Shown one piece after another: positions 14,457-18,213 of a stretch of DNA of 64,000 bases. Position 1 is the stretch's first letter. Each line of letters opens with the position of its first letter. Source of the DNA: a virus (lineage: Duplodnaviria > Heunggongvirae > Uroviricota > Caudoviricetes); the IMG/VR virus record IMGVR_UViG_2627853701_000009; one strand, written 5' to 3'. A program made the translations under genes and the position numbers. Below the pieces are notes generated by a model. It had not been told where the DNA came from. It ran no database searches and worked only from the letters and a program-made list of their open reading frames with translations.

Positions 14457-14533
14457 TTAGATGATATTAGTGACCTGTTTCAGAGCATTAGCGCAAGGCG
14501 ATTCTTTGTCTTCTTGCACTAATTTTTTATCAT
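14457..14533 (+). repeat. Conserved 75-bp element copy 1: Int arm-site-like motifs plus 11-bp inverted repeat hairpin and T-run
   Basis: About 90 percent identical to 18135-18213; hairpin ATTAGCGCAAGG...CTTGCACTAAT then TTTTTT. Confidence 0.6.
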
Positions 14534-14537
14534 AAAA

Positions 14538-15172
14538 ATGTTCCTAGCACTGGGCATCAATATCGCAGGTCAGAAAGAGCTCCTGGGGATGCGGCTGGCC
14601 GAAAATGAAGGGGCGAATTTCTGGTTCAATGTGCTGACTGAACTGAAAAACCGCGGTCTGAACGATATCCTCATCGCCTGTGTGTATGGCCTGAAAGAAT
14701 TCCCGGAGGCCCGCATCCAGTTATGCATCGTGCATATGGTGCGCAACAGCATGCGCTTCGTGTCATGGAAGGAATACAAAGCCGTCACTCGCGACCTGAA
14801 AGCGATTAGCCTCCCACAGAAGAGGCAGGCCAGCAGGCACTGGAAGCGTTTGCTGCGGCCTGGGACTGCCGCTATCCGCAGATAAGCCGGTGCTAGCTGT
14901 CAAACTGGACTAACTTGGCGACGTTTTTCGCTTATCCGGCAGATATCCGCAAAGTGATCTACACAACGAACGCCATCGAGTCGCTGAACAGTGTGATCCG
15001 GCATGCCATCAGGAAACGCAAGGTGTTCCCGACGGACGAGTCAGTAAAAAAAGTGGTGTGGCTGGCAATCCAGGCCGCGTCACAGAAATGGACAATGCCG
15101 TTAAGGGACTGGCGAATGGCAATGAGCCGCTTTATTATCGAGTTTGGTGACCGTCTTGACGGTCACTTTTAA
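14538..15172 (+). pseudogene. IS256-family (mutator-type) transposase, 3' fragment with internal disruption
   Basis: Two adjacent ORFs with motifs NAIESLNSVIRHAIRKRKVFP and KWTMPLRDW typical of IS256-family C-termini; N-terminal half absent. Confidence 0.7.
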
Positions 15173-15218
15173 GAAAAGGCATTTACACAGAATCCTAAAC
15201 AGGCTCACAGGCCTCTAA

Positions 15219-15788
15219 TCATCCACATTGTAAAGATCCTTTGTTGTAAGTAAGATCTGGTACCCTAATAATATCAAAAGGATTAAAATCATCACTGCAT
15301 CCTTCCACGAGGCATTTCATTGCTCGTAGATCACCATATAGCTCTGAAGAGTGATGCGGACATAGCAGATTATAAACTTTACATTTCGAATCTTCTTTGC
15401 CTTGTCTACTTTCCTCAATTTTTACTTTCAATGAATGCAGAAAAAAAAGATCCCTGATATAACTATCCCTGTCCTCTATCGTCATTCCCGCCCTCAGCGC
15501 TCCGACAACCTCATCAGTATTTTCATTTCTCACCTCAAATACACTATTTCTCTTATCCATCAGCCCACTTACAAAAGCACTTAGCTCTTGAAAAATTTCC
15601 TCAAGCTCATTATTATTTCTGGCACATGAATATATAGAGACCATAACATCAAGTTTATCTTGTAATTCAGGAGAAAGAAAGTGATTATGATTAAGCTCAC
15701 TTACTGATTCCGGAGTCGAAGGGTTACCTCTTCCTGATACATACATCCATGAATAAAGATTTGCTGAAGAACCACTTGTTGGTAACAT
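15219..15788 (-). CDS. nleF: Type III secretion effector NleF (caspase inhibitor)
   Basis: 189 aa, starts MLPTSGSSANLYSW and ends with the C-terminal LQCG motif; matches NleF from memory. Confidence 0.85.
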   Translation of the reverse strand: MLPTSGSSANLYSWMYVSGRGNPSTPESVSELNHNHFLSPELQDKLDVMVSIYSCARNNNELEEIFQELSAFVSGLMDKRNSVFEVRNENTDEVVGALRAGMTIEDRDSYIRDLFFLHSLKVKIEESRQGKEDSKCKVYNLLCPHHSSELYGDLRAMKCLVEGCSDDFNPFDIIRVPDLTYNKGSLQCG

Positions 15789-15853
15789 ATCAAAACCCCC
15801 TTAACAAATAAATCCATAAATATTATTGCAACTAATATATCTGGATAAAAATA

Positions 15854-16765
15854 TTATATCTTACTTAATACTACACTAATAAGATCCAGCTTTCCTCCGT
15901 GATAAGATTGCATGACTTGATGTTCACTCCATGAAATATCAGAAACATTATAAGATGATATATCTATTGGATTAAATTCATTTCTCATACGATCATATAA
16001 AACATTTGTTTCTGTTGTATCAACAAAAAGAATTCCTTTTTTCTCCAGTCTGTCAAACATATCGTAAATAGCCTGTTCAGCTTGTGCTGGTAATGATGGA
16101 ATATCCAAAAGAGATTCCCCATTTATTTTATTCATTCTAATACCAATAACATTTCCATTATCATTATATATTTTCTCTGCACTCCCGGAACCATAATACT
16201 GATTGAAACAACGAACTTCGCTTGTCACCTCTTCATGGCTTTGAGATATAGTAAACATCTTCAACACTTTTGTTGTATCTTCCATATCTTCATACACGAC
16301 AGCATTACCACCTTTACCAATAACATTACCTGGCACGGGTGATTTATTGTTGCTAACCCTCGGCAACTCTGATTGAGTATAATCCGCTGGAGGTAACTCC
16401 GGCTGCGCATAATCCACTGGAGGTAAATCAGGTCTGTTCGAATGAACAGAGCCTCTTTCTATAGTCGTGCTCACTGGCGATGTATTCAGCATAGCCTCAA
16501 TTTTTCTGCTAATCTCTCCCTTAGGCCATCCCAACCTGTGCAACAGATTAGTAAAACAACCACTATGACTTTCTCTTGTAACGCAAAACTTATTATCAGT
16601 GACCACAACACGATATGTTCTGTTGCCAACCGTTACTTGCGTCCCGCTATCAGAGTGAACAGCAGCATCCCTTACAGAGGATAAAACACGATTATCAGGC
16701 GAAGTCAGGTTTCTGGTTAAAGAATTCCATGAACATCCCAAATTTATAGAAGAGGGCGATAACAT
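15854..16765 (-). CDS. nleH: Type III secretion effector kinase NleH (303-aa form, NleH2-like; OspG family)
   Basis: MLSPSSINLGCSWNSLTRNL..., kinase core, C-terminal SKI; start at the ATG after the alternative-start TTG used by the ORF track. Confidence 0.85.
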   Translation of the reverse strand: MLSPSSINLGCSWNSLTRNLTSPDNRVLSSVRDAAVHSDSGTQVTVGNRTYRVVVTDNKFCVTRESHSGCFTNLLHRLGWPKGEISRKIEAMLNTSPVSTTIERGSVHSNRPDLPPVDYAQPELPPADYTQSELPRVSNNKSPVPGNVIGKGGNAVVYEDMEDTTKVLKMFTISQSHEEVTSEVRCFNQYYGSGSAEKIYNDNGNVIGIRMNKINGESLLDIPSLPAQAEQAIYDMFDRLEKKGILFVDTTETNVLYDRMRNEFNPIDISSYNVSDISWSEHQVMQSYHGGKLDLISVVLSKI

Positions 16766-16835
16766 ACATTTCAACCTTCAAAATAAACCTATCTAATTAT
16801 TCCTAACAGACATCCCCCATACATGACAACAAAAA

Positions 16836-16856
16836 CCGGAGCCGGACTCCGGTTTT
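16836..16856. terminator. Junction hairpin copy b (as 834-855)
   Basis: Identical CCGGAGCCGGACTCCGG hairpin with flanking A/T runs. Confidence 0.55.
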
Positions 16857-16870
16857 GTGAAGCTGTCGGG

Positions 16871-16942
16871 TTACTTCATCCCGCCAATATTTTCCCACGT
16901 CCCGTCAGCACGCAGGATTTGCAGCGGTCTTACCACACACTG
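16871..16942 (-). pseudogene. 3' remnant of the tail-fibre-adjacent small ORF (encodes ...PLQILRADGTWENIGGMK), 5' part deleted
   Basis: Near-identical to 869-940 and 20943-21014, then abruptly replaced by integrase-derived sequence. Confidence 0.7.
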
Positions 16943-17930
16943 ACCCGAGGACGAAAAAAGAGTTCGGGCTGGGAAGAGACAGAAGAGTAGCAATTTCAGA
17001 AGCATTCACACCAACATTGAGCTTTTCAGCGAAAGTGGGCACGAATCATTGCTGGACAGGGTTAAAGGCACTGACTCAATCACTCTTCATACGTGGCTTG
17101 ATCGATATGAAACAATCCTCAGCTAGAGGGGGAGCAAGCCGAAAACATTACTCGACTACGCCAGCAAAATCAGGGCAATTCGAAGAAAATTGCCGGACAA
17201 ACCGCTCACTGACATATCAACGAAAGAGGTGGCAGCAATGCTAAACACCTACGTCGCAGAAGGTAAAGCGGTTTCCGCAAGAGTAATCAGGTCAACCCTT
17301 GTTGACGTTTTTCGAGGGGCAATAGCCGAGGGGCATGTGGCAACGAATCCAGTAACAACAACCCGTGCAGCAAAGTCAGAAGTAAGGCGCTCAAGGCTGA
17401 CAGCTAATGAGTATGTCGCTATTTACCATGCTGCTGAGCACCTCCCCATCTGGCTGAGGCTGTCAATGGATTTAGCTGTCGTTACAGGGCAGAGAGTGGG
17501 CGATTTGTGCAGAATGAAGTGGTCAGACATAAACGATGGTCATCTTCACATTGGACAGAGTAAAACAGGAGCCAAAATTGCCATTCCGCTGGCTCTAACC
17601 ATTGACGCACTCGACATCTCACTGGTTGATACACTACAGAAATGCAGGGAGGCCAGCAGCAGTGAAACAATAATCGCATCAACCTATCACGAACCACTTT
17701 CTCCAGCCACAGTATCACGGTATTTAACAAAGGCGCGAAATGCATCCGGGATCTCGTTTGATGGAGACCCACCGACATTTCATGAACTACGTAGTCTGTC
17801 CGCGAGGCTATATCGGAACCAGATTGGCTACAAGTTTGCACAACGTCTTCTTGGACATAAATCTGATTCAATGGCGGCGCATTATAGGGACAGTCGCGGG
17901 CGGGAGTGGGACAAAATTGAAATCGGATAA
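16943..17930 (+). pseudogene. int: Lambda-family tyrosine integrase pseudogene (5' truncated, frameshift and in-frame TAG)
   Basis: Three-frame translation matches lambda Int (KEFGLGRDRR..., then WLDRYE..., then intact catalytic region 17190-17930 with HELRSL and HKSDSMAAHYRD); stop at ILS*RG and a frame change. Confidence 0.8.
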
Positions 17931-18134
17931 TGATTTTATTTTGACCAATAATGACTTACCAGATTTAACAACTTGATATTTAATAAGATTTTTGAACGAA
18001 CAACTTCCATGTCAGAAGGAGGATAAAATCACAAAAACACATTAAAAATCATTATGTTATTTATACAATTGATTAAATGATAGACTGCAAAACGCGACAA
18101 AACACTACATTTAGAGTCACAATTAATCAATGAG

Positions 18135-18213
18135 TTAGATGTGATTAGTGACCTGAGACAGAGCATTAGCGCAAGGTGATTTTTTGTCCTCTTGCGCTAA
18201 TTTTTTGTCATCA
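18135..18213 (+). repeat. Conserved 75-bp element copy 2, about 205 bp downstream of int pseudogene; hairpin with perfect 11-bp stem and T6
   Basis: ATTAGCGCAAGG(18165-18176)...CTTGCGCTAAT(18191-18201) then TTTTTT; preceded by GAGTCACAATT and ATTAGTGACCTG motifs. Confidence 0.6.

Follow-up and report, generated by a model that had tools for sequence, protein, structure and literature searches.

Probable relics of two lambdoid attachment sites in the effector locus of an Escherichia coli O157:H7 prophage

The 64,000-nucleotide stretch of Caudoviricetes DNA filed as IMG/VR record IMGVR_UViG_2627853701_000009 (hereafter, the window) includes the effector locus of an Escherichia coli O157:H7 lambdoid prophage integrated at ompW (Sp9/PPompW type), in which a short element ending in a hairpin occurs twice, at 14457-14533 (copy 1) and at 18135-18213 (copy 2). 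With a probability of roughly 0.9, both copies are relics of lambdoid attachment sites, each keeping the distal P arm (the arm-type sites P2 and P1 on either side of an H1-type spacer for integration host factor, IHF) together with the sib/tI hairpin. The kind of element is one that is already known, as the lambda-family attP P arm plus sib/tI is textbook phage biology.

The repeated element and its lambda counterpart

A preliminary description made from the letters of the window had reported the two copies at these positions with about 90% identity. The positions stand, the identity over exactly these spans is slightly lower at 85% (67 of 79 positions), and the repeat is longer than described, as a repeat finder aligned 14396-14537 with 18074-18215 over 142 nt at 77% identity. 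The window contains a 33-nt core pattern, ATTAGTGACCTG...CAGAGCATTAGCGCAAGG, exactly two times, where 100 shuffles gave an expectation of 0.00, and a blastn search of the element against the whole window did not find a third copy. Both copies are unannotated in RefSeq genomes.

The identity of the element follows from its alignment to lambda, in which copy 2 matches positions 27,528-27,643 at 87% over 117 nt (E=1e-31). The lambda record places two Int binding sites in this interval, ‘int 2’ at 27,615-27,634 and ‘int 1’ at 27,583-27,602, which correspond to P2 and P1, respectively, of the arm-type sites. The lambda sequence along the int-sense strand is cagtcactatgaatcaactacttagatggtattagtgacctgtaacagagcattagcgcaaggtgatttttgtcttcttgcgctaattttttgtc, and both window copies align with it base for base, so that the resemblance to Int arm-type sites noted earlier is an alignment to P2 and P1 themselves. 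P1 is the same in both copies, and P2 is identical to lambda in copy 1 and differs by one change in copy 2. Judged by the consensus for IHF, WATCAANNNNTTR, the stretch that separates P2 from P1 is presumably the H1 IHF site, kept in copy 2 (AATCAATGAGTTA) and carrying one change in copy 1. The order of parts (P2, IHF-like spacer, P1, a gap of 5-10 bp, hairpin, T-run) is colinear with lambda, and the distance from the attachment core to P1 is about 125-140 bp, as in lambda (core 14327-14340 and P1 from 14466 in copy 1; core 18000-18018 and P1 from 18144 in copy 2; core 27724-27738 and ‘int 1’ at 27583-27602 in lambda). Alignment to the attP-sib region of HK022 is likewise colinear, and in most genomes the element lies outside any insertion sequence (IS) or coding gene.

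The hairpin begins 5 bp past P1, and its homologue carries an annotation in several phage records, as a ‘sib transcription processing site’ in HK022, a ‘sib retroregulation site’ in HK97 and a ‘transcription terminator tI’ in O276. An att/sib-like remnant, one of the options first proposed, is thus what the phage records describe, and the terminator proposed beside it is covered by the same assignment, tI being the terminator half of sib.

RNA folding gave a stable hairpin for each copy. In copy 2 the inverted repeat of 11/12 bp is perfect (ATTAGCGCAAGG / CTTGCGCTAAT) and folds at -19.1 kcal/mol (z -5.3), close to the -20.0 kcal/mol obtained for the lambda hairpin. The hairpin and T-run described at the outset therefore hold fully for copy 2, but the stem of copy 1 contains one C·A mismatch (CTTGCACTAAT) and folds at -13.9 kcal/mol (z -3.7). 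The T-run lies 3' of the hairpin on the + strand only in both copies. When a longer transcript was folded, copy 2 was predicted to form an extended stem like that of lambda sib, with ACAGAG paired to the U-run (-34.8 against -35.7 kcal/mol), and no such extension was predicted for copy 1.

Configuration of the two attachment sites

The features around copy 2, in order along the window, are as follows.

16937-17930 (+): int pseudogene, matching lambda Int residues 26-355 at 67% identity, with the N-terminus missing, a frameshift and an internal stop (RefSeq)
17925-17999 (+): P' arm, overlapping the int stop as in lambda, with three P' arm-type repeats that align with lambda and HK022
18000-18018 (+): core and crossover region, ACAACTTCCATGTCAGAAG, neither lambda-type nor HK022-type
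18019-18164 (+): P arm, with P2 GTCACAATTAA at 18116-18126 (one change from lambda), H1-like AATCAATGAGTTA and P1 ATTAGTGACCTG at 18144-18155
18154-18213 (+): sib/tI, a perfect hairpin with arms at 18165-18176 and 18191-18201 and a T-run at 18201-18207

Judged by sequence, copy 2 probably belongs to a complete attP in the unintegrated form (int'-P'-core-P-sib), with a core of the type used by prophages that integrate at yfaT. The element starts 205 bp past the int pseudogene stop (17930), in keeping with the earlier remark that it lies about 200-270 bp downstream of int, the distance of attP and sib in lambda. From the int stop through sib, the region matches the attP of HK022 and of phage Gally at 78-80% over 280 nt (85% of the query). 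An O111:H8 prophage beside the DUF1175 gene upstream of yfaA (‘yfaT’), in which xis and int are both intact, has this core in its attL; as copy 2 and this attL diverge directly after the core, the crossover was placed there. In the O111:H8 99.1145 prophage, int occupies 479-1549 and the host DUF1175 gene, convergent with it, occupies 1544-2170, so that the few bases at 1544-1549 belong to both; the phage att site therefore appears to provide the 3' end of the host gene. The full copy 2 arrangement was present at 94% identity or higher in only about 456 genomes, mostly O157:H7 and O55:H7. On its other side, phage homology stops after TTTTTTGTC, where the junction with the cargo lies.

The features around copy 1 differ in that host DNA takes the place of int.

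14148-14290 (+): last ~140 bp of ISEc8 (IS66 family), ending ...GTACGCTTAC and cutting the chromosomal flank of copy 1
14291-14326 (+): B' flank, 36 bp of E. coli chromosome that borders the gal-bio lambda attB towards ybhB, from alignments to the K-12 empty attB, the PT109 attR and O145 PPompW
14327-14340 (-): lambda-type att core, reading GCTTTTTATACTAA, with five T against six in lambda and K-12 (GCTTTTTTATACTAA), a 1-bp deletion in the C/overlap region
14341-14486 (+): P arm, with P2 GTCACTATGAG at 14438-14448, a degenerate H1-like spacer and P1 ATTAGTGACCTG at 14466-14477, aligned to lambda ‘int 2’ and ‘int 1’
14487-14529 (+): sib/tI hairpin, with arms at 14487-14498 and 14513-14523, a C·A mismatch and then a T-run

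Read on the + strand, the sequence to the left of the copy 1 P arm is ttagtataaaaagc (14327-14340), which is the lambda core GCTTTTTTATACTAA on the opposite strand minus one T. The 36-bp B' flank was checked against the empty K-12 attB and against occupied sites. In the PPompW prophage of O145:H28, where ISEc8 is absent, the element is identical and the host-derived flank extends to about 70 bp, reaching the ybhB terminator; the host flank in both cases (36 bp in the window, about 70 bp in O145 PPompW) differs little or not at all from the ybhB-side flank of K-12 attB. Copy 1 thus has the makeup of an attR (P-O-B') left by a prophage that formerly occupied the gal-bio lambda site, with ybhB-side DNA of the host still attached. 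The lack of int beside copy 1, already pointed out in the preliminary description, was confirmed, and is explained by this configuration, because attR in an integrated prophage is at the end opposite int. Phage homology at copy 1 stops at about 14533, at the start of an IS256-family transposase fragment. The possibility that the element is part of an IS was rejected, as ISEc8 and the IS256 fragment only abut copy 1 and the element is the same in the O145 version, where ISEc8 is missing.

Several results weigh against the assignment of both copies to attachment-site relics. No covariation support was obtained for the RNA stem, which is invariant in 15 of 16 distinct homologues from phages and genomes, and the sole stem change among the 16, that of copy 1, breaks a pair; since the stem is invariant, covariation is uninformative here. 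A simple promoter and terminator scan flagged neither hairpin, because the loops of about 14 nt, which contain a 3-bp inner stem, exceed the 8-nt loop limit of that scan. An Rfam scan of 13800-18800 at E<=1 gave no match, in a database without a sib family. Finally, a simple tandem-lysogen origin does not fit the two copies, whose cores differ, and would need one or more additional recombination events.

The same sequences have a defined role in a live phage. The terminator tI stops transcripts from pI, and antiterminated pL transcripts read through it and form an RNase III site. In such a phage the recombination complex forms when the N-terminal domain of Int binds P1 and P2. Transcripts of int that start at pI end at the hairpin and its U-run, and on read-through from pL the hairpin is extended into a substrate for RNase III, leading to degradation of the int mRNA. 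Retroregulation of Int by a sib element lying downstream has been described (Schindler and Echols 1981, as cited in PMC5300877). At the locus in the window, no functional int was found upstream of either copy (a pseudogene precedes copy 2, and no int precedes copy 1), and xis is absent. Going by the letters alone, both copies are decaying relics and neither can serve an integrase of its own here, because int is truncated and frameshifted, xis is missing, the copy 1 core lacks one T and the copy 1 hairpin is mismatched. The sib element is accordingly a retroregulator by descent and not a working one at this locus, as there is no functional upstream int transcript. Some residual intrinsic termination on the + strand, upstream of nleA and after the espO/ISEc8 side, is plausible, and the ~140-bp blocks may passively supply homology at the att-side edge of effector cargo.

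Island architecture and alternative explanations

In a RefSeq genome that is 99.9% identical, the gene order is ISEc8, copy 1, the IS256-family transposase fragment, nleF, nleH1-2, a fragment of the C-terminal part of a tail-fibre gene, a tyrosine recombinase gene with a frameshift and without its N-terminal part, copy 2, nleA, an nleG-like pseudogene and tail-fibre genes. Three further features are needed to describe the cargo.

16804-16942 (-): fragment of the 3' end of tfa (tail-fibre assembly), 96% identical to 20876-21014, at the start of the nleH1-2/nleF module
18591-19916 (+): nleA, a cargo gene 378 bp past the sib T-run
20876-21014 (-): 3' end of tfa in the resident prophage, where the gene is intact; pairs with 16804-16942 and lies at the start of the nleG'/nleA module

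The tfa 3'-end block is thus repeated over 139 nt at 96% identity, and the P-arm/sib block is likewise repeated. We infer from these repeats that the island consists of two modules, each running from a tfa 3' end through cargo to a sib/P arm, stacked head to tail. The first holds nleG' and nleA and ends in attP-int'; the second holds nleH1-2, nleF and the IS256 fragment and ends in attR with host DNA. At about 16940, int, truncated from codon ~26, is joined to the truncated tfa fragment, in what appears to be a deletion joint. A third copy of the tfa 3'-end block was observed at 775-940 (91% identical to 16777-16942), which suggests that a further effector cargo region starts just to its left, near the start of the window. 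A second lambdoid tail module, at 775-13491, shares 90-98% identity with 20876-33023. Its last gene is a truncated tail gene, against which the left edge of the ISEc8 fragment (~14148-14153) abuts. The junction at 14148-14153 was found in none of 5,426 complete E. coli genomes. Either the source strain alone has undergone a deletion next to the IS, or the junction is an artefact of assembly.

Two lysogens simply in tandem were rejected as the source of this arrangement, because the cores differ (lambda-type against yfaT-type). The stacked modules could instead have arisen by a tfa crossover followed by deletion, or by capture of the second module through aberrant excision from the lambda site. 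In the Sakai prophage Sp3, which occupies the lambda site, nleH1-1 (the paralogue of nleH1-2) and nleD lie just inside attR (locus 12484-14800), which agrees with the nleH module having arisen there.

The ends of the element bear on what else it might do. Past the T-run, homology stops among the 16 distinct homologues, and at least five different sequences follow. An identical junction between sib and nleA occurs with three att-side contexts: the yfaT-type attP of the window, a lambda attR at ybhB in strain A1, and a truncated P arm in BP-4795 and O145 RM12761. In three other att contexts nleA lies about 370-380 bp past the end of the match, compared with 378 bp in the window. The spacer between sib and nleA (18213-18591) and the junction GTCATCAAACATACAGCCA are kept in four att-site contexts, one of them a classical lambda-site prophage from an echidna isolate. 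This suggests that nleA was inserted once, ancestrally, beside sib.

These junctions are among the observations in favour of a role that would be an addition to the attachment-site origin, with which it is compatible. Effector cassettes may be exchangeable units whose conserved borders are the sib/P-arm block (att side) and the tfa 3' end (tail side), moved between lambdoid prophages of differing integration specificity by homologous recombination in the ~140-bp blocks, with two cassettes stacked here. We regard this as tentative and somewhat short of an even chance. Each cargo module is flanked by the tfa-end repeat (96%) and the P-arm/sib repeat (77%), the homology of all 16 homologues ends right past the T-run ahead of differing sequences, the sib-nleA junction is the same in differing att contexts, and switch points fall within the P arm. 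Shared junctions could also be explained by descent followed by recombination elsewhere, the blocks are short and the window copies only 77-85% alike, and the recombination itself is deduced from the arrangement of the sequences. A fuller version, in which this border allows nleA and similar cargo to pass from one lambdoid prophage to another whose integrase differs, and the PPompW/OI-71 island was built by stacking such cassettes, one of them lifted from the gal-bio lambda site with host DNA, is more doubtful still.

It is unlikely that ordinary intrinsic termination is the main reason why the hairpins have been kept, copy 2 protecting nleA and copy 1 the nleF/nleH side from read-through that comes from upstream, with the attachment-site history incidental. 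A stable hairpin with a T-run on the + strand only and the constant sib-nleA spacing in four contexts would agree with such a role. However, copy 1 precedes the IS256 fragment and genes on the opposite strand, leaving nothing to shield, and its stem is decaying, and a single ancestral insertion of nleA beside sib accounts for the spacing equally well.

That the sites are still active, with Int from another resident prophage driving cassette excision or exchange, or with incoming phages using them as landing sites (prophage-in-prophage), is very improbable: the copy 2 P', core, P2, H1-like site, P1 and sib are nearly intact, matching-type int genes are intact in other E. coli, and incoming phages do use chromosome-derived att sequences in PPompW effector loci (PMC8112680), but the local int is a pseudogene and xis is absent, the cores differ so that the two copies are unable to recombine together, the copy 1 core lacks one T in the C/overlap region and is P-O-B' rather than attB, and an occupied version of either site was not seen among the contexts sampled. 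The suggestion in the preliminary description of a recombination site used in cassette exchange, if site-specific recombination is meant, is not supported, in view of the differing cores, the local int pseudogene and the 1-bp deletion in the copy 1 core.

Distribution and comparison with known systems

The element is conserved well beyond the window, being present in 2,065 of the 5,426 complete E. coli genomes and in 78 phage records. In 1,919 of the 5,426 genomes the order ybhB-B'-core-P arm-sib marks an occupied lambda site, and genomes with an empty site match only up to the core. In unintegrated phage genomes (lambda, HK022, HK97, mEp235, Salmonella Lederbergvirus and others, the 78 records) the element lies after int. 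As 93% of element-bearing E. coli genomes have it at attR beside ybhB, it does not always follow int, and does so only in unintegrated phage DNA. BP-4795 and O145 RM12761 carry internal relics with the P arm truncated between P2 and P1.

A scan of genome contigs with a degenerate P2-P1 pattern found no distant relatives, and returned only Escherichia and lambda-identical contigs. The lambda-identical contigs, either ~48.5 kb or tiny and of low coverage, were found in Shewanella, Pseudomonas, Chromatium, Enterococcus, Kitasatospora and other assemblies, and are probably contamination by lambda control DNA (spike-in). ‘Campylobacter phage CJLB-4’ (MW057783, 48,361 bp) gave the same element match as lambda. 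In E. coli EFF60 the P-arm/sib element is split by IS5 (locus 1736-1813 and 3001-3045), immediately beside torT and a gene for a phage acyltransferase.

Mechanistically the locus is of low interest, and it helps only modestly in tracing the assembly of the effector island. In that use the element is a marker that the O157 nleA/nleH/nleF island is probably made of two phage cargo modules, each ending in an old attachment-site arm, and that the nleH1-2/nleF module, probably once at the right end of a classical lambda-site prophage, moved together with a piece of host DNA. The ybhB fragment would be a fourth chromosome-derived att fragment, beyond the three described in these prophages, and P2-P1-sib offers a simple annotation landmark for the att-side boundary of effector cargo. 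A literature search found no paper describing these two relics.

Among the closest known systems is the lambda P arm with sib/tI (27,542-27,634), which has the same order of parts and the same distance to the core as both copies, and the same distance of about 200-270 bp past the int stop as copy 2. Unlike lambda, copy 2 has a different core and an int pseudogene, and copy 1 has the lambda core minus 1 bp, a mismatched hairpin and an attR configuration. Over the whole span between the int stop and the end of sib, no phages match copy 2 better than HK022 (GenBank X51962) and Gally. Copy 2 resembles HK022 in its relation to lambda, with conserved arms and a different core, but its core ACAACTTCCATGTCAGAAG differs from that of HK022 and matches yfaT-integrated prophages instead.

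Host-derived attB sequences (yecE, ykgJ/ecpE and ompW) have been described in PPompW effector loci, where phages integrate into them (Nakamura et al. 2021, PMC8112680). Those sites share with copy 1 the prophage family (PPompW/Sp9), the effector locus and the presence of short host att-flanking DNA in cargo regions; the text of that paper mentions neither ybhB, ybhC nor a lambda-type site. Copy 1 differs from them in that it is a P-O-B' attR, derives from the lambda site at ybhC/ybhB and has damage in its core; it offers no intact B-O-B' to an incoming phage. A further parallel is found in the bio-type specialised transducing phages of lambda, which likewise carry P-O-B' and bio-side host DNA within the phage genome, and the record of phage DN1 annotates such an ‘attR site’ with a transduced bio locus. 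Compared with these phages, only about 36-70 bp of host DNA is left here, with no bio genes, and by analogy with them copy 1 may be the product of an aberrant excision.

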